Shown: positions 12,371 to 20,891 of the stretch, one piece after another
How the letters are laid out: every line of letters begins with the position of its first letter
Position numbering within the stretch: position 1 is the first letter of the stretch
Source: a virus
Lineage: Duplodnaviria > Heunggongvirae > Uroviricota > Caudoviricetes
Virus record (IMG/VR): IMGVR_UViG_3300029877_000014
Reading direction: 5' to 3' (one strand)
Length of the DNA: 25,713 bases
The notes under the pieces: generated by a model
The model's input: the letters and a program-made list of their open reading frames with translations, nothing else
Database searches by the model: none
Told to the model about the DNA's origin: nothing
Position numbers and translations under genes: made by a program

Positions 12371-13486
12371 TTAAATCCCTGCTTTTCTGAATACCTGTGC
12401 ATCACGCTCACGGAGCTGCTTCAGCGTCAGCCATTCGCCTTTATCGGTGTAAAATTCATCTGGCGACATACCACCATCCCGAATCAGCTTTGCTCGGGTT
12501 TCCCCCACAATCTGTTTTTGTCTGGTGTAAGGCTGACGCAAAAACCATTCCCTGTAGGTTGTATCTCCGGCCACCACGCCATCCATGCTGGCCCGCTCAG
12601 CCGGGGAAATATCGCGAACATCAATACCCAGTTCCTTCGCTGATTTCAGAATGAACGTTTCCGTTGAGCGGCAGCAGAAATGAATTTTTCCCGGCCCCTG
12701 CAAATAAGGCACGCTGTGACCTACAGGTTTATTATTCAGCGTATATTTGAGGCGATCCCTGATTCGACATTGTGGCGTAGTACGATTATCAAGCGTTGAT
12801 AACCATTGCTTACCCTTAATCAAATCATTATTCGCGCTGGCAAAACTCTCACGGGCAGTAGCAGCAAGATGTCCAACCGCTGTTTTTGCAATGCTGGCCG
12901 CATTAGCCCGGCTCATCTGCAATGCACCATCCTGAAATCCCTTACTGACATGTCCCCGAATTTTTCTTGCGATCTGCTCATTGGTATCCCCCAGCAAAAA
13001 ACCCTGACGCACTGTATTTGTTATGCGTCTGAGCCGATCCGCCTCAAGATCTGAGGCCCACTCACTGAGCAGTCGTCCCTGAAATGGTCGCGCCATTGCA
13101 GCGGCATAAAGTGCATCAGGAGAGATACCAACCAGAGGGTGAACATCAGCAACAAAATCAGGTAGCATAGAATCAAACAGACTTAACTGATAACCAGCCT
13201 CATAAATTGCCAGCTCGTTCAGCTCTCCGGAGAGACTGGTAAACATGCTGTTAATAGCAGTGCGGTTAACCTCTCTGACGCTCGCCAGAAGTGACTCCAG
13301 GCGCTTAACGGTAAAACTACCTGGATCGAGGCTGTCCAGTGCTATCAGCAGGCGAGCAGTAAGTTCCGCATCGCTGTCATTCAGTATTTTCACCATTCTG
13401 GCAGCCACGCCAGTGCTATAGCGGGATATCCAGACTGCATGAGCAATTGATTCATCACGCAGCCGTTCATTCACGGTTTGCATCAT
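12371..13486 (-). CDS. Head morphogenesis / minor capsid protein (Mu F / SPP1 gp7-like)
   Basis: 371-aa ORF directly downstream of the portal gene, overlapping it by 20 nt; assigned by position and the Cys/His-containing C-terminal region. Confidence 0.55.
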   Translation of the reverse strand: MMQTVNERLRDESIAHAVWISRYSTGVAARMVKILNDSDAELTARLLIALDSLDPGSFTVKRLESLLASVREVNRTAINSMFTSLSGELNELAIYEAGYQLSLFDSMLPDFVADVHPLVGISPDALYAAAMARPFQGRLLSEWASDLEADRLRRITNTVRQGFLLGDTNEQIARKIRGHVSKGFQDGALQMSRANAASIAKTAVGHLAATARESFASANNDLIKGKQWLSTLDNRTTPQCRIRDRLKYTLNNKPVGHSVPYLQGPGKIHFCCRSTETFILKSAKELGIDVRDISPAERASMDGVVAGDTTYREWFLRQPYTRQKQIVGETRAKLIRDGGMSPDEFYTDKGEWLTLKQLRERDAQVFRKAGI

Positions 13487-14873
13487 TGATTTCCATCAGC
13501 ATTACACTCTGATTTTTTAATTCATCGATCACTTCCTCTGGACGGGAATCCTGATCGATAAATTTCAACGCCTGCAACACCCGAATCGCATCAATCTGAC
13601 GTATATCACCGCCCTGACGCAATGACTGAACAGCCAGCGCGGAGGATGAGTCAAACACCTGGGCAGATACATCCAGTTCAGTGCGCACATCCACATTGCC
13701 ACCGCAACTCTCTCCGATCCATTCCGCCATTATCTGGAGAATATTATCGAGGGCATCTTCGAGGGAGTTCGCCATTGTATAAAGCGGCGAGTTTTCCTGC
13801 ATTCGCTCTTCATTAGTCTGATCAACAGATTTGGTGGATGTATTTTCAGCACGCAGAAGTTTAGCGCCGGCATGACGCATCTGATTTTCCAGCTTCTCAA
13901 GTGATGTTTCGCCAGATTCTATCGCTGCGCCACTATGTTCAACATATTCGAGGCCATTTTTTGTTCTGTCCTCAAAAATCGTAGCGGTGGATGCACCAAC
14001 CGTCAGTTCTTCATTCCTGTCCAGCCCGTAGGCCACCAGCAATGGAACGCGGGCAACATGAAGAATATTGTCCTGCTCGCTCTGGCTTTGCCAGTGCTTG
14101 ATATTCAGCAAGCCAAGATTAAGCAATGGCGGTGTACCACGCATAAATCCTGTTTTCTTCGTGTACAGTGTTACCAGAGGAATATCATCACGGCTGGTAT
14201 TCCATGACTCATGAAGCGTCCAGACAGATTCGCCATTAGTGCCTTCGCTACGTCGATAAATTTCAACTCGACGGGGCATAATATGGCGGATCTGCTCCAC
14301 CTTCTTCTGCCCGAAATCATCACCATCAATAATGATGACCTCTTTTATACGCAAATCAGTGAGAACAACTTTCCCTTTTTCAACTTTCGATTTCCATCCA
14401 ATAACCTGGCGTGGATTCAGCATCGTAACGTACGGACGACTACCGGCCGCGTTTTCATCGGCTTTTGTCCGAATCTCTTTCATATCCGTTCGTGGATAGT
14501 CCACCAGCGCATGTGCCACACCATACTGAAATGCGAGGCTGAAAAATTGCTGCGCCCACACATCCAGTCGGCTTCCCTCCATGTCGATATTTTCTGCATA
14601 TTCTCTGATTTTTGCCGGCGTTTCCTCACTCAATACTGTCGGCTCTGCAAATATGCGCCCAATATTTTGCTTGATGCTTTCTTCATACACAGGAAGTAGC
14701 GTAGCCACAGACAGGCGTTTTTTATAAGCGTCTTCATCTTCGTTAGGCCATTTTGGGAGATAATTTTCCCCCTGCCTGCGCATTTCAAGCGTACCGCCCA
14801 TCAGTGCGTCGTTAATATCCCACGCCTCCAGCATATCGTTATAGTCGAGGTTGGGTGTTGATATATCAGCCAT
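13467..14873 (-). CDS. Portal protein
   Basis: 468-aa ORF immediately downstream of the large terminase (3-nt gap); size and position are canonical. Confidence 0.7.
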   Translation of the reverse strand: MADISTPNLDYNDMLEAWDINDALMGGTLEMRRQGENYLPKWPNEDEDAYKKRLSVATLLPVYEESIKQNIGRIFAEPTVLSEETPAKIREYAENIDMEGSRLDVWAQQFFSLAFQYGVAHALVDYPRTDMKEIRTKADENAAGSRPYVTMLNPRQVIGWKSKVEKGKVVLTDLRIKEVIIIDGDDFGQKKVEQIRHIMPRRVEIYRRSEGTNGESVWTLHESWNTSRDDIPLVTLYTKKTGFMRGTPPLLNLGLLNIKHWQSQSEQDNILHVARVPLLVAYGLDRNEELTVGASTATIFEDRTKNGLEYVEHSGAAIESGETSLEKLENQMRHAGAKLLRAENTSTKSVDQTNEERMQENSPLYTMANSLEDALDNILQIMAEWIGESCGGNVDVRTELDVSAQVFDSSSALAVQSLRQGGDIRQIDAIRVLQALKFIDQDSRPEEVIDELKNQSVMLMEINDANRE

Positions 14874-14875
14874 AA

Positions 14876-16186
14876 TTAAATCCGAAGTGATGTGACTCTT
14901 CCGGTCGGTTTGACAATAGGGAATTGCTTAACGATGAAATAACCTCCGGCATCATTCGGGTGATCATTGCCAGATTTTTTATCAGGCTCCCCCTTCTCAT
15001 CCCAGACCTGTTGCTCCAGAGATTCGGCATATAACGGGCAACGCTTCACATTAACTTTATAGCGACGCTCACCATTGGCATTGCAGAACATTGCATTCAT
15101 TGAGTTAACGCGATCTTTTACTGGCGGGTTCGAGCTGTTCACCACAACGTTAAAACCAGCCTGCTTAAGCTGGGCTATATCCGTCGTACTTGCGTTACTT
15201 GATTTTCTGGAATCCCCGGAAGCATCTGGATAAATATAAATTTCCCTCACTTTCCGGTAATCATTCCCATCATACAGCCAGAAGCGTTCTTTAATGATGC
15301 GGATCATATCCGGCGTATCGTAGGCATTGATGATTTCAGTTACCGCACATGGAAGCCCCAAACGCAGCACATGGACGATTCCCGCCATCTTTCCAACGTT
15401 AAAATCCATCCCAATATAAATCGGCTCCCCTGGCTGCTCCACTTCTTCGCAATTATTCAGTTTCCGGTCAAACTGATGGTAAACAGTACCACTTGTCAGG
15501 TTAGTAAACTGTCCTCGCAGATAGGCTTTAATCAGCTCTGGAGGGTATGATTCAAGAAGCGAAGGAATGTAATCTGCTGGCAGGTTCTTTTCATTATCGA
15601 AAGTAGATGCCTGCACCAGACCATACAGTGAGGCCAGCTCTGTTTTTTCACGCACGGCTTTAACAAACTGCTCGTAGACAAATTTGAATCCTTCCGGCGT
15701 GGTTGTAACGTCAATACCGTTGCGAAGTCCATCAATCTTATAACGCATACGCGCAATTATCTTGCGCCACGCCGTTCTGGCTTTTTCCTTCGGCAAAATG
15801 TCCAGTTCATCCACCAACGCATTACCAATTTTGAAACCGACGATCGTTTGTGGCTTCTCCATCGATCTGCAGATAGTGGTTCCCCGATACTGGCGTCCGT
15901 AATAAAAGTGAACCTCTTTATTTCCCTCATTAATTTTTACGTTCAATCCCCAGTCAGCAGCAACTTCTTCCACTGTAGGGTAAAAAATATCGCGAATTTG
16001 GGGATACGTTGGCGCAAAATATCCCTGATTTATACCTGGATGCTCCCAAATCCCCTTGCATATGCCGCCACACCCAACCCATGTTTTGCCCGAGCCAAAA
16101 CCAGCAATATAGGCTTTAAATTTATGGGGCATTGAAAGAAATCGCGCCTGAGGCACATTAAGCGTCGGAGAGATCATCTTCATCAC
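14876..16186 (-). CDS. Terminase large subunit
   Basis: 436-aa ORF with a Walker A-like motif (AGFGSGKT) near the N-terminus and an acidic nuclease-type C-terminal half. Confidence 0.85.
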   Translation of the reverse strand: MMKMISPTLNVPQARFLSMPHKFKAYIAGFGSGKTWVGCGGICKGIWEHPGINQGYFAPTYPQIRDIFYPTVEEVAADWGLNVKINEGNKEVHFYYGRQYRGTTICRSMEKPQTIVGFKIGNALVDELDILPKEKARTAWRKIIARMRYKIDGLRNGIDVTTTPEGFKFVYEQFVKAVREKTELASLYGLVQASTFDNEKNLPADYIPSLLESYPPELIKAYLRGQFTNLTSGTVYHQFDRKLNNCEEVEQPGEPIYIGMDFNVGKMAGIVHVLRLGLPCAVTEIINAYDTPDMIRIIKERFWLYDGNDYRKVREIYIYPDASGDSRKSSNASTTDIAQLKQAGFNVVVNSSNPPVKDRVNSMNAMFCNANGERRYKVNVKRCPLYAESLEQQVWDEKGEPDKKSGNDHPNDAGGYFIVKQFPIVKPTGRVTSLRI

Positions 16187-17252
16187 TCCTTACTCTGGCA
16201 TCAACCACATTAATATTGATCGCCACAGGCTGGGGATGTTCATTATCTTCCACCGTTTCGATCTCTTTGCGCAGCTTCTGGTTTTCCATTCTGCGCCGTT
16301 CAATTTCCAGTTCCTGTAGCCGCTTATCTGCACATAAAGCCCCGCCAGCAGAAAGCAAACGCAACAATTCACGCCGGGCGGCAGCCTTATCCTCCAGCAG
16401 GATCTCAACGCCGAATTTTCCGAATTTTGCCCCTGCATATAATTGCCGCGCATCCCCATCAAGCAGAGTGGTATCAGCCATATAAAGCTGTCCCGTTCCC
16501 TCACCGCAGCACTTCGGGCAGTCCGGATTGGGTATGGCGTTATCAACAAAGCCGAGGCCTCCATATTCCGGTTCGGGTTTGCCATCTCTGGAAGCCTGCG
16601 CCGCTGCCTTGTCGAATTCTGCTATATCGCGCCACTGGTAGAGATGATTCTCGCCCCAGCAATAACGGCAGTTAACACGGCGAAATTGTGCAAGCTGATT
16701 GGGGTCGGCCAGGACAATAGCCATCAACTGACTCACTAGTAAATCCAGGTCTGCGGTATAGCGTTTCTGGTACTGATTGCGGAAGTAGCTGATAGCGCGA
16801 AAAACCCTGGCATTTCTAAGCATACGACTGGCGTTGCTGTTAGCTGTCGCACCTTGCCCCTCATAACCGGCTAGTCGGTACGCCTCTGTCGGCTTTTTAC
16901 CCTGAGCAACAAGCATCGCAAACTTAGCCTGCTGGTCAGAAATGCCGAATTCATCGGGACAGAACGAAAATTCCTCCGCGTCGCCCTCATTCAGGCCCGC
17001 ATCGAATACTGGCTTTTTTTCCTGAGATTTTTCGTTCCGCTTTTGTGCAGTCTGCGCAGATTTTTTCTGCGCACTTTTTTGCGCAGTTTTGCACATTTCT
17101 GTCTGCGCATTTTTCGGAGTTTTTTTGATGTAACGACGGGCTGTTGCGTAATTCAGTCCCCTTGCTTCACACCATGCCACCGGAGATATACCGGAGCGGG
17201 TGTATTCAGCAATATACTCCTGCTGCAACGCCCCCCAGTCCGGTCTGCTCAT
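16158..17252 (-). CDS. Terminase small subunit (N-terminal HTH, low-complexity Lys/Gln/Ala linker, Terminase_2-like core)
   Basis: 364-aa ORF directly upstream of the large terminase; contains ...KPTEAYRLAGYEGQGATANSNASRMLRN..., typical of small terminases as I recall the family. Confidence 0.6.
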   Translation of the reverse strand: MSRPDWGALQQEYIAEYTRSGISPVAWCEARGLNYATARRYIKKTPKNAQTEMCKTAQKSAQKKSAQTAQKRNEKSQEKKPVFDAGLNEGDAEEFSFCPDEFGISDQQAKFAMLVAQGKKPTEAYRLAGYEGQGATANSNASRMLRNARVFRAISYFRNQYQKRYTADLDLLVSQLMAIVLADPNQLAQFRRVNCRYCWGENHLYQWRDIAEFDKAAAQASRDGKPEPEYGGLGFVDNAIPNPDCPKCCGEGTGQLYMADTTLLDGDARQLYAGAKFGKFGVEILLEDKAAARRELLRLLSAGGALCADKRLQELEIERRRMENQKLRKEIETVEDNEHPQPVAININVVDARVRSDEDDLSDA

Positions 17253-17255
17253 CAG

Positions 17256-17507
17256 TTAGTCCTGATTTTTATCCACCCTGAGTAGTTCGCGCAGAGCAAA
17301 GGCATCCCCTTTTCTGGCAAGCTTAAACAATGCCGCTCGTAACTCGGCTTCACCTTTCGCTCTGCCCTTACGGATGGCCGCATAAAAATCTGTCATTGCT
17401 TCCCGATTTTCTTTCAGTCGGTTCAGATCAACATCCAGAACGTCAGCGATTTGTTGTGCAGTCATCCGGCACGCTGCCAGAGACTCGACTTTCGAATACG
17501 GAATCAT
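17256..17507 (-). CDS. Small hypothetical protein (83 aa, possible HTH)
   Basis: ORF overlaps the 3' end of the 317-aa gene by 65 nt, so the true start may be an internal Met (e.g. MTAQQIADVLDV...). Confidence 0.3.
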   Translation of the reverse strand: MIPYSKVESLAACRMTAQQIADVLDVDLNRLKENREAMTDFYAAIRKGRAKGEAELRAALFKLARKGDAFALRELLRVDKNQD

Positions 17508-18396
17508 TTGTCACCCCCATTGATATGCAGGGTGTCTTCTTCCTGTATTTTTCGTGAAGGATTTTTACTGCAGCGTTGTTCCAGGTGACCTGATGGTGAA
17601 TGCGTTTATGGCTGGCACCCATCAGTGAGATTTTTACGCACGACGGCGCATACATGACGGAGTAAAAACTTTTAACGTAGGTTCCGGAATCCAGATACAG
17701 CTCGGTCATTCCGCCGCTGTTTTTCTGCGTCTGTTTCTGCCCTAACTGGACAGCACCGATCGTCATAAACAATTCACCACAGCGACCGAGATTCGTGTAC
17801 GTATTCACATCCTCGTTAATGCGCCCCATGAATGAGAACGGTCGATCAACCGAACAGATAAAGCTGTTCATTGCCTTGCGTTTCACCCACGAAGCATGGC
17901 CGCCATTGTCACCAAGAAAATCCCCGCCCTGCGACATAGCGATGGAAAGAGCAGGTATTGATTCGTAGTACGCCAGCATTTCAGAAAGGATCGCATCCAG
18001 TTTCCTTATCGGAAAATAGGCCTGGTCATAGTTGCGATCCACCCGAAACTGGAACTCGTGATAATCATCATCGAGCTGAATGAAGTATTTACACCCGACC
18101 AGTTTTGCCAGGTCGAAACAGGCATTACGGGCGTAAAAAATTGAGCGGCGGTCACAGAAATTATCGGCTTCGTCAAAACGACTGGCGATATCGGCTTTGG
18201 AAAACACCAGCACCTGTTCACCAAATTCAGCCATGTACTGATTCCGTGTCTTATCTTCATCATCAACAACGATAAAAATTTTCCCGGTATAGCCAGCACG
18301 ACGCAACGTCCGGTAAGTCAGAACTTTGTCCGGTCGCCCGTGAGTCAGAATAAAGGCGCAAAAATCATCACGCATATTCCTCCTCCTCACCACCAT
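17443..18396 (-). CDS. Hypothetical protein, 317 aa; weak resemblance to a GT-A-type nucleotide-sugar transferase (DxD-like QLDDDYHEF)
   Basis: Long ORF tightly coupled to the upstream ParB-like gene. The Rac ydaY locus is, from memory, at the corresponding position. Functional guess is motif-level only. Confidence 0.45.
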   Translation of the reverse strand: MVVRRRNMRDDFCAFILTHGRPDKVLTYRTLRRAGYTGKIFIVVDDEDKTRNQYMAEFGEQVLVFSKADIASRFDEADNFCDRRSIFYARNACFDLAKLVGCKYFIQLDDDYHEFQFRVDRNYDQAYFPIRKLDAILSEMLAYYESIPALSIAMSQGGDFLGDNGGHASWVKRKAMNSFICSVDRPFSFMGRINEDVNTYTNLGRCGELFMTIGAVQLGQKQTQKNSGGMTELYLDSGTYVKSFYSVMYAPSCVKISLMGASHKRIHHQVTWNNAAVKILHEKYRKKTPCISMGVTNDSVFESRVSGSVPDDCTTNR

Positions 18397-19159
18397 GCAT
18401 GATCTCCACCATGCGCTGCGTCATCCGGACAAATCCATTTTCAATAGCCTGCTGATAATCAATGATCACCAGCGCCGACTCCTCGAAAAAACACTGAATT
18501 TCAGAGGGGGCGTGAGCGTAATAGTCCGCAATTCTGCTGAAATTAAACACCGTGTGACGTTCTGCCGCACACAGGAGGAATTTCTCAATATCAGGCTCAA
18601 GGGACGCCGAACGTATCCGGCTGATCAGCTCCTGAGTTTTCGTATCGTCGTACAGTTCACTGATATCCGGTTTACCGCCCGACGGCTCATAAACAGGCGT
18701 ATCAATTTTCGTCGTATACGGCTCCTCCTCATTTCCTGTACCGGGCAAAACATCCGTCAACAGTTCATCAATTTCTGTCGGGATGAAGCCTGTCAGGGAG
18801 ACATCAAAATCAGCATTGATTAGGTCCGACAGCTCCATCCGCAACAGATCTTCATCCCAGCCAGCATTCATCGGCAGGCGATTATCTGCCAGGCGGTACG
18901 CCTTTTTCTGCTCATCCGTCAGGCCAGACAGAACAATGACCGGAACAGAATCCATTTTGAGCATTTCAGCCGCCATAACACGACCGTGACCCGCAATAAT
19001 TTCGCCCTTTTCGTCAATCAGCACCGGATTAGTCCAGCCGAATTGCTTAATACTTTCTACCAGTTGTGCCACCTGCTCAGGGCTGTGCGTCCTGGCGTTG
19101 TGCGCATACGGTGACAATTCTTGTAATGGGCGATAGACTATCTTTAATTTCTCGCTCAT
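18368..19159 (-). CDS. ParB-like nuclease-domain protein (ParB/Srx N-terminal fold)
   Basis: 263-aa ORF with ...NPVLIDEKGEIIAGHGRVMAA..., the GxxR-type ParB N-terminal motif; acidic C-terminus. Confidence 0.75.
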   Translation of the reverse strand: MSEKLKIVYRPLQELSPYAHNARTHSPEQVAQLVESIKQFGWTNPVLIDEKGEIIAGHGRVMAAEMLKMDSVPVIVLSGLTDEQKKAYRLADNRLPMNAGWDEDLLRMELSDLINADFDVSLTGFIPTEIDELLTDVLPGTGNEEEPYTTKIDTPVYEPSGGKPDISELYDDTKTQELISRIRSASLEPDIEKFLLCAAERHTVFNFSRIADYYAHAPSEIQCFFEESALVIIDYQQAIENGFVRMTQRMVEIMHGGEEEEYA

Positions 19160-19296: not shown

Positions 19297-20754
19297 TTAG
19301 GAGCGCCAAAAAAAACCTGAAAACAATATAATAACAGGATAAATTTCAAGGCGACCAAGAATCATAGCTATGCACATTAAACATTTTGCAATGTCATTAA
19401 GCACTCCGAATGACGATGCAGTAGCCCCAAAACCTAATCCCATATTATTAATACATGCAGCCACTGTTGCAAATGATGTAAGAAAATCATATCCCATACC
19501 ATTTAACACCAGTATAAAAAACACCGTGAAGAGAGTATAAAGAAAAAAGAAACTCCATACAGACCTCATTACACGATCTGTAACTATCTTCCCTCCTACA
19601 TTTACACTCAACAACGCTCTGGGATGAGAAAGCTGATTTATCTCGTGTTTGCTTTGTTTGAAAAGTATAAGAAATCGAAGTGACTTAATTCCACCACAAG
19701 TTGAACCTATACATCCCCCAAAGAAACTTGACAACAGCAAAAACACTATCGTGTGCGTGGGCCAACTTGCATAATCCTGCGTAGCTAAACCATTATCAGT
19801 GAGCATGGAGCTGGCAAGAAAAAACGAATGAATAAAACTTCCATGCAAGTCATACATACCTATATGCCAGACCTGGAAAGAGGTAACAATGATCACCCCT
19901 AAGGCTATTAACAGAAAGAAACGAAGTTCAATATCTCTGATTAAAGGTTTTATCGTTTTCCTGCTAATAACAATATACCAAAGAGTGAAGTTGAAAGCCG
20001 ATAGCAGGGAAAAAGAACCAGCCACCAGCTCAACCAAATAGTTATTAAAATATCCGATACTCTCGCTATGAGTTGAGAAACCACCAAGCGAAACTGTGGA
20101 AATCCCGTGACAAATAGCATCAAACAAAGGCATTCCTGCAAGTCTATAACAGACAATACAAGCAATACCTAATAAAGAATAAGTTATCCACAGTGTCCGT
20201 GACGTATCGGCCAGGCGGGGAGTGAGTTTGTCATCCTTAAATGGCCCCGGCATTTCTGACTGATAAAGCTTTGCACCACCAATACCCAATAATGGCAATA
20301 CAGCAACCGCCAGAACAATAACTCCTAAACCACCTATAAAATTTAACTGTGACCGATAGTACAAATATGCCCGAGGTAATGAACTAACATCATCAATTAC
20401 AGTTGCTCCTGTTGTTGTTATTCCAGAAACCCCTTCAAACAGAGCATCAATGAACGTTAAATTAAGTTCTGAGTCAATCCATAAAGGGAATGCACTAATA
20501 ACAGAAAACAAAATCCAAAACATTACAATTATAATAAACCCATCACGGGTACGTAATTGAATGCCAGATTTCTTAGTTGTATACCACGCTCCGCCACCAA
20601 TGCAAAAAAATATAACGAAAGTTATAAAGAAAACGAACAGGCTTTTTTCTTTATAAAACAATGCTACAACCATTGGTGGCAACATTGAAAGACTATAGAG
20701 CCAAACCAGGAACCCACACATATGAGTAACAACTCTTACATGAGATGTATTCAT
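19297..20754 (-). CDS. trkG: TrkH-family potassium uptake membrane protein TrkG
   Basis: Polytopic membrane protein starting MNTSHVRVVTHMCGFLVWLYSL... from the first ATG at 20754 (the track start at 20772 is TTG); matches E. coli TrkG as I recall it. Visibly AT-rich relative to flanking phage genes. Confidence 0.85.
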   Translation of the reverse strand: MNTSHVRVVTHMCGFLVWLYSLSMLPPMVVALFYKEKSLFVFFITFVIFFCIGGGAWYTTKKSGIQLRTRDGFIIIVMFWILFSVISAFPLWIDSELNLTFIDALFEGVSGITTTGATVIDDVSSLPRAYLYYRSQLNFIGGLGVIVLAVAVLPLLGIGGAKLYQSEMPGPFKDDKLTPRLADTSRTLWITYSLLGIACIVCYRLAGMPLFDAICHGISTVSLGGFSTHSESIGYFNNYLVELVAGSFSLLSAFNFTLWYIVISRKTIKPLIRDIELRFFLLIALGVIIVTSFQVWHIGMYDLHGSFIHSFFLASSMLTDNGLATQDYASWPTHTIVFLLLSSFFGGCIGSTCGGIKSLRFLILFKQSKHEINQLSHPRALLSVNVGGKIVTDRVMRSVWSFFFLYTLFTVFFILVLNGMGYDFLTSFATVAACINNMGLGFGATASSFGVLNDIAKCLMCIAMILGRLEIYPVIILFSGFFWRS

Positions 20755-20891
20755 ATCTAAATATTCTTTCAATTATAACCACCTTGCTGCAATATTATGA
20801 TTATACTGTATAAAATTTAACTCCTCTTAGATCTTACTTCACTGTTCCTTATGAAACAATCATCAAAATGAATCATATTGTAGTTAAGATT

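Follow-up and report, generated by a model that had tools for sequence, protein, structure and literature searches.

The window, i.e. the whole stretch of 25,713 nucleotides that was analysed, is a Rac-like lambdoid prophage of E. coli. In minus-strand order it carries the lysis genes, trkG, a ParB/Srx-like gene, a TAGT-family glycosyltransferase gene, an ORF of 83 residues, terS, terL and the portal gene. The features that are of importance for this work, from low to high coordinates, are as follows.

13467-14873, minus strand: DUF4055 portal gene, following terL and itself followed by the head and tail genes
14876-16186, minus strand: terL, the large terminase (Pfam Terminase_6N and Terminase_6C)
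16158-17252, minus strand: terS, the small terminase of 364 residues (Pfam PF03592; match to phrog_51)
16953-17123, minus strand: basic, low-complexity tether of TerS, residues 44 to ~100, which holds the hexamer array
17124-17252, minus strand: add-on N-terminal domain of TerS, residues 1-43, a predicted three-helix HTH
17256-17507, minus strand: ORF of 83 residues directly upstream of terS (match to phrog_309)
17443-18396, minus strand: TAGT-family glycosyltransferase (Pfam TAGT, E 8e-35; phrog_842)
18368-19159, minus strand: ParB/Srx-like gene
19297-20772, minus strand: trkG, a potassium transporter, preceded by the lysis genes and followed by the ParB-like gene

The terminase genes and their neighbours

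The small terminase appears to be built from a familiar body and an unfamiliar extension. Residues 122-321 match the Pfam family Terminase_2 (PF03592) with an E value of 2.4e-8 and 35.1 bits, against a cut-off of 26.1 bits, and the canonical SF6/SPP1-type part of the protein starts at about residue 105. There is also a weak match between residues 108-158 and residues 9-55 of the Pam5 TerS, which hold its N-terminal HTH. For a Klebsiella-type homologue (L009) the structural matches can be given directly: its residues 75-152 align with residues 24-102 of the SF6 TerS (3zqp) at an E value of 4e-9, and its matches to 3zqp, 4zc3 and 2cmp range from 4e-9 to 9e-7. Judged by these alignments, the body of TerS is a small terminase of the SF6/SPP1 type. 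In proteins of this type the HTH is found at the extreme N-terminus, whereas here about 100 residues precede the canonical HTH.

The large terminase is 43-51% identical to the TerL proteins of Jerseyvirus, Kagunavirus and Dhillonvirus phages (43-44% for Jerseyvirus). Jerseyvirus phages package by the headful mechanism with initiation at pac, as typed by PhageTerm and PFGE (PMC10783031). The combination of an SF6/SPP1-type TerS body and headful relatives of TerL gives a gene context that fits a headful phage, at a TerL identity to experimentally typed headful phages of only 43-51%. The packaging module runs in the order terS, terL, portal and the array lies inside terS, which is the location that is expected of a pac site.

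Of 5426 complete E. coli genomes, 896 contain this terS, which in E. coli EcPF14 is 100% identical, and relatives occur across the Enterobacterales. Its stop overlaps the longest ORF of terL, which has a GTG start, by 29 nt (16158-16186); in near-identical GenBank prophages the annotated terL start lies slightly further downstream and the overlap is ~20 nt. These near-identical GenBank 'phages' (vB_EcoS-xxxR) are prophages predicted in silico. The gene trkG has the lysis genes on one side and the ParB-like gene on the other, an arrangement known from the Rac prophage of K-12. The match of the 83-residue ORF is to the middle of phrog_309, a 'terminase small subunit' PHROG (E 8e-23); the ORF is kept in E. 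coli-type loci and absent from array-bearing phages of Klebsiella, Yersinia and Providencia. Two terS copies are defective and were set aside as uninformative on the array: in E. coli CUWW10 (L007) the gene is cut off just past site 1, with an IS1 element beside the break, and in phage Rac-SA53 (L008) an annotated 'gpOterS' fusion without the N-terminal domain retains part of the array.

A hexamer array selected as DNA

Inside terS, between positions 17044 and 17109, there are four exact copies of TGCGCA and two further copies with one mismatch each. The array takes up nt 144-209 of the gene and encodes the Lys/Ala/Gln-rich residues 48-70 of the basic, low-complexity tether, much as a preliminary description of this DNA, which spoke of a low-complexity Lys/Ser/Ala/Gln linker, had proposed. 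In the order of the sense strand, the sites are these.

17104-17109, site 1: exact TGCGCA, sense AAT-GCG-CAG (N48-A49-Q50), exact in 36 of 37 E. coli-type alleles
17090-17095, site 2: degenerate here, sense TGTGCA (plus strand TGCACA), ATG-TGC-AAA (M-C-K); exact TGCGCA in 26 of 37 close alleles, as aTG-CGC-Aaa (M-R-K), in a frame unlike that of its neighbours
17080-17085, site 3: exact TGCGCA, ACT-GCG-CAA (T-A-Q), exact in 35 of 37 alleles
17068-17073, site 4: exact TGCGCA, AGT-GCG-CAG (S-A-Q), exact in 29 of 37 alleles and TGCGCG in 6
17053-17058, site 5: exact TGCGCA, TCT-GCG-CAG (S-A-Q), exact in 34 of 37 alleles
17044-17049, site 6: degenerate here, sense TGCACA (plus strand TGTGCA), ACT-GCA-CAA (T-A-Q); exact TGCGCA in 23 of 37 close alleles

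The sense strand of the array thus reads AAT-GCG-CAG ... ATG-TGC-AAA-ACT-GCG-CAA-AAA-AGT-GCG-CAG-AAA-AAA-TCT-GCG-CAG-ACT-GCA-CAA. In most of the close E. coli alleles both of the degenerate copies are exact and the array consists of six TGCGCA, as it does in alleles that are 90-95% identical to the window.

TGCGCA is not enriched over the window as a whole, with 12 copies against 10.8 expected. It is the local cluster that is unusual: not one of 400 first-order Markov simulations produced four copies in 66 nt, and a single one produced three. The cluster within terS that the preliminary description pointed out is therefore real, while its details need some revision. Of the 'four or five cores' it counted, four are exact, and the two one-mismatch copies bring the number of sites to six. 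TGCGCA is its own reverse complement, so that to call the copies direct repeats is not meaningful. The spacing, given as 13-20 nt, is 9-15 nt from start to start when the degenerate copies are included and 12-24 nt for the exact copies only.

In order to place the array in an evolutionary context, loci were drawn from species-representative genomes and viral contigs. This gave 58 sequences that are less than 90% identical to each other over their first 270 nt, from Escherichia, Klebsiella, Yersinia, Providencia, Proteus, Pantoea, Xenorhabdus and others, with protein identities down to ~35%. Each of the 58 carries 3-8 motif copies at the corresponding place. The motif itself comes in two forms, as Yersinia, Providencia and many other relatives have TGCGAA(T)/(A)TTCGCA in place of TGCGCA; we name the two classes here by residue 39 of the add-on domain, which is Arg in one and Lys in the other. 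Motifs were counted in the 135 nt downstream of the N-domain helix, and the counts compared with those in shuffles of synonymous codons, which keep the protein unchanged. The Arg39 class (n=41) has a mean of 4.8 TGCGCA per stretch, against 0.48 in the codon shuffles, and the Lys39 class (n=17) a mean of 5.4 TGCGAA/TTCGCA, against 0.44. In no sequence was the observed count of the class's own motif reached by more than 2 of 1000 shuffles, and the excess, roughly tenfold, is a property of all 58 non-redundant homologues.

Furthermore, the hexamer is used in every reading frame, with 150 cases of xxT-GCG-CAx, 39 of xTG-CGC-Axx and nine of TGC-GCA. A good example is a Klebsiella prophage TerS that is ~39% identical to the one in the window: at the same place it has six TGCGCA in 64 nt, and these code T-A-Q, L-R-T and K-C-A, i.e. 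all three frames are used within the one array. The motifs are also sharply localized. Between +100 and +200 from the ATG, each locus has 1.6-2.9 motifs per 50 nt, against a background of ~0.03 across the 5 kb from -2000 to +3000. The copy number ranges from 3 to 8 and is most often 5, and the spacing ranges from 7 to 27 nt and is mostly 7-16. The flanks of the hexamers hold little information except for a richness in A; the spacers diverge while the cores stay, and in the homologue alignment the length and sequence of the tether vary freely save at the hexamers.

The array is selected as DNA rather than as peptide, as follows from the roughly tenfold excess over the codon-shuffle expectation and the use of all three reading frames. 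The A/Q/K-rich peptide is, for the same two reasons, a consequence of the DNA motif and not its cause. The check suggested in the preliminary description, which sets the conservation of the repeats against the synonymous variation among related terS genes, is thus strongly positive, and it holds down to ~35% protein identity. The close E. coli alleles say less: their hexamer columns are only slightly less variable than their spacers (0.054 versus 0.083), and three of the six sites are often degenerate, which indicates that single copies are dispensable. It is the deep comparisons, and not conservation among close alleles, that carry the argument for selection on the DNA.

Two further observations concern the surroundings of the hexamers. 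Klebsiella-type loci (L009, L012, L013 and others) have a second TGCGCA cluster of 2-3 copies ~200 nt downstream, at nt 300-400 of terS. Its copies are spaced 12 and 26 nt apart, exceed the codon-shuffle expectation and lie inside the region that codes for the canonical SF6-like HTH. The second cluster is found only in Klebsiella-type and 241-aa-type relatives, is absent from the window's type, and could, by analogy with P1 or SPP1, be a second pac element. The other observation is that the A7-A10 runs between hexamers are recurrent frameshift points (loci L055, L085, L086, L093, L135 and L149; proteins P0121-P0240). More than 200 database ORFs of 44-88 residues consist of the N-domain and an out-of-frame tether, and some of these occur on many contigs. 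Homopolymer sequencing error, prophage decay or real slippage could each produce them.

The add-on domain and residue 39

The array always directly follows the coding sequence of the 43-residue N-terminal add-on domain. This domain has 12 invariant columns among 28 diverse sequences, and searches of Pfam and the PDB with its sequence gave no meaningful match. In the AF2 model there are helices at residues 6-20, 24-31 and 35-41, with a pLDDT that averages 72 and is 82-87 in the core; Arg39 is located in predicted helix 3 (YATARRY). Nearly all of the top Foldseek matches in the PDB are HTH domains (e.g. Aca1, IstA, DeoR and sigma region 4), at scores that are not significant (E 1 or more, TM 0.4-0.5). 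The add-on domain is predicted from this model to be helical and HTH-like.

The type of motif follows residue 39 of this domain. Among the 58 non-redundant sequences, Arg39 goes with TGCGCA in 41 of 41 cases and Lys39 with TGCGAA/TTCGCA in 17 of 17, and the Lys39 sequences of this sample have no TGCGCA at all in the stretch after the N-domain. A second sample, of 71 unique sequences from viral contigs, gives the same picture (29/29 for Arg39 and 42/42 for Lys39), so that the two agree in 129 out of 129 sequences. Residue 39 is the only column of the N-domain that separates the classes. The motif of the Lys39 class is often extended to a 12-bp palindrome, TGCGAATTCGCA, which encodes A-N-S-Q. 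Both motif classes are found on three different families of TerS body, and the motif goes with the N-domain and not with the body.

The association can also be approached from the side of the DNA. A reverse scan of viral contigs for three close TGCGCA, blind to the protein, returned 121 arrays. Directly after an N-domain lie 69 of these, and about ten more follow diverged N-domains (MAKTDW..., MAKHDW...) that have Arg at the equivalent position. Close TGCGCA triplets were also seen in other contexts (viral contigs L327, L344 and L353), one of them in a different terS-like HTH protein, where it is read in the L-R-x frame, and another after a winged-helix protein. Either an independent use of the hexamer or chance may account for such triplets.

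The array is, then, tied to the add-on domain both in position and in motif type, and Arg39 is a candidate for the specificity residue of the predicted recognition helix. That said, the N-domains mostly cluster by class, and the number of evolutionary events behind the Arg/Lys covariation may be small. Since only a few bases separate the array from the coding sequence of the N-domain, the two would be co-inherited even if they were not functionally coupled.

The glycosyltransferase and ParB/Srx-like genes stand directly upstream of the terminase genes, and no ORF for a TET/JBP dioxygenase or a cytosine methyltransferase was seen in the window. An explanation by methylation, which was suggested by the GCGC in TGCGCA and by the TET-associated glycosyltransferase upstream, was rejected in general form, because the TGCGAA of the Lys39 class does not contain GCGC.

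A candidate packaging site and its known counterparts

We consider it probable that the TGCGCA array is the part of pac which TerS recognises, and that the TerS oligomer binds it through its add-on HTHs. Because the array is preserved at the level of DNA and changes in step with a residue of TerS, it is likely to be where packaging starts in this phage family. The earlier suggestion of a pac site inside terS gains support, as a candidate, from the DNA-level conservation, the tracking of residue 39 and the headful-type gene context.

The mechanism that we propose is a simple one. The tether-coding DNA would carry 4-6 copies of a hexamer that is read by the add-on HTH of TerS itself. On assembly of the TerS ring, several of the tethered HTHs would settle on neighbouring hexamers, either of a concatemer or of an unexcised prophage. 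The HTH-bound array would mark the spot and position TerL, presumed to be the nuclease and motor, which would cut nearby. A headful series would then begin, presumably in the direction from terS to terL, i.e. towards lower window coordinates. We infer the binding of hexamers by the HTH, the cooperativity between subunits, the place of cleavage and the direction of packaging alike. In SF6, the canonical HTH shows little sequence specificity when it binds pac DNA (PMC4737164), and this leaves room for an add-on reader that is specific.

The covariation and the positional evidence would apply equally if the add-on domain bound the array for autoregulation of the late or terminase genes and packaging started elsewhere; TerS sitting on its own coding DNA would block transcription or replication, and the sites are indeed within the gene's own coding region. 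We regard this as unlikely. To our knowledge, the well-studied DNA-binding domains of TerS proteins all serve packaging-site recognition. The array has no promoter-like context, as it is located ~145 nt inside the ORF, and it moves with the N-domain onto other TerS bodies, as a portable specificity module would. A position inside terS is also common for pac, the sites of P22, P1 and SPP1 all lying in or at this gene (PMC11260489). Could the hexamers instead be read by another DNA-binding protein of the host or phage? DNA-level selection by itself does not name the reader, and the 83-residue ORF upstream (17256-17507), with its match to a 'terminase small subunit' PHROG, is one candidate for such a protein. 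This is less likely still, given that the motif switches with a residue of TerS in every one of the 129 sequences, that the ORF is missing from phages of Klebsiella, Yersinia and Providencia in which the array is retained, that the hosts span many genera and that most of the arrays from the pattern-first scan are tied to the N-domain.

It is also conceivable, and in our view quite improbable, that selection acts on the mRNA, where hairpins formed by the palindromic copies would govern translation or the slippage of ribosomes in the A-rich tether. In the sense orientation, the RNA of 17030-17125 folds unusually well, since the palindromic copies can pair (-29.8 kcal/mol versus -16.2 for shuffled sequence, z = -5.5), and between the copies there are A-runs of 7-10, at which many database ORFs are frameshifted. 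A structure would permit compensatory change, however, and the hexamer is the same in every copy and lineage. The variable copy number (3-8, with the odd number 5 the commonest) and spacing (7-27 nt) imply that there is no conserved RNA fold, and pairing gives no reason for the motif to track a protein residue. By inspection, the A-runs of the window are out of the X XXY YYZ register of slippery heptamers, and the idea of a programmed frameshift was rejected. The remaining account, to which we give almost no weight, is that the repeats arose as a side effect of slippage during replication or of encoding a low-complexity A/Q/K peptide, functionless as DNA and at most serving as homology patches for module exchange. 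The tether is of low complexity and variable length, Tandem Repeats Finder detects periods of 12 and 15 nt, both weak, and there are mosaic joints near the array. Yet a fixed peptide predicts ~0.5 copies and not ~5, the hexamer is found in three frames that code A-Q, [L/M/V]-R-x and C-A, and the cores outlast the spacers between them. For practical purposes, an origin from the peptide or from slippage alone can be dismissed.

The reading of the array as the recognition part of pac can be taken a step further, and this step we offer tentatively. The first 100 residues of TerS and the DNA that encodes them may form a self-contained, portable cassette for packaging specificity, in which Arg39 or Lys39 sets the hexamer that is read. 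The site array of the HTH reader would in that case be written into the coding sequence of the reader's own tether, and the site would dictate the peptide of the tether, rich in A-Q for TGCGCA and in A-N-S-Q for TGCGAATTCGCA. Such a cassette would have been grafted onto at least three unrelated TerS bodies, and would use a switchable code of one residue and one base pair. If this is true, ring terminases of weak specificity gain a switchable choice of the DNA that is packaged.

The recognition of pac decides which DNA is packaged by a headful phage, and so sets the start of generalised and lateral transduction. Should the array indeed be pac, sequence alone would suffice to annotate the site in hundreds of prophages, and the direction and origin of lateral transduction beside Rac-like prophages would become predictable. 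In addition, arrays placed on plasmids could make transducible vectors. Our search of the literature found no description of a TGCGCA array element; 'TGCGCA' and 'terminase' came up together only in one herpesvirus paper, the paper on the Yersinia phage vB_YenM gives no packaging data, and the one on phiLLS had no bearing on the question.

Several known packaging sites share features with the array. The pac site of P22, a headful phage, is like the array in being inside the terS gene of an enterobacterial temperate phage, where a DNA signal constrains the coding. P22 differs in having one asymmetric site of ~22 bp in gene 3 rather than a hexamer array, and in the family of its TerS, which is unrelated. 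The P22 site was reportedly defined experimentally by Wu et al. in 2002, whereas the array of the window is known from its sequence. Lambda is a cos phage, with unit-length packaging that depends on IHF, and its R sites are 16 bp long and upstream of Nu1. The R-sites of cosB, which belong to the winged HTH of gpNu1, would be comparable in that several sites for a TerS HTH are arrayed by the terminase genes, but they are 16-bp sites outside Nu1, in contrast to the hexamers inside terS here.

In form, the closest analogue is the pac site of P1, which consists of TGATCA/G hexamers within the pacA gene of a headful phage, arranged in two hexamer groups, as reportedly described by Sternberg and Coulby (cited in PMC11260489). 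The two systems have in common a short palindromic or near-palindromic hexamer in several close copies inside the small-terminase gene, and the second cluster of the Klebsiella-type loci, ~200 bp downstream, recalls the two hexamer groups of P1. The window and the other E. coli-type genes differ in having a single cluster. Neither TGCGCA nor TGCGAA contains GATC, and Dam control is therefore not expected. The TerS, too, is of the SF6/SPP1 type with a predicted add-on HTH, and not PacA.

In protein family, the closest counterparts are SPP1 and SF6 (G1P, pacL-pacC-pacR), which share the family of the TerS body. In these phages, too, pac and the 5′ part of terS overlap, and a ring of HTHs is believed to engage the site; no equivalents of pacL and pacR were identified here. 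The HTHs of SF6 bind pac weakly, and bent DNA is believed to underlie recognition (PMC4737164). What sets the present locus apart is that the SPP1/SF6 family has neither an add-on reader nor an array of identical hexamers. The predicted extra N-terminal HTH and the identical-hexamer array point to direct readout of the sequence and, in contrast to SF6 and SPP1, it would be the add-on reader, with its candidate one-residue code, that provides the specificity.
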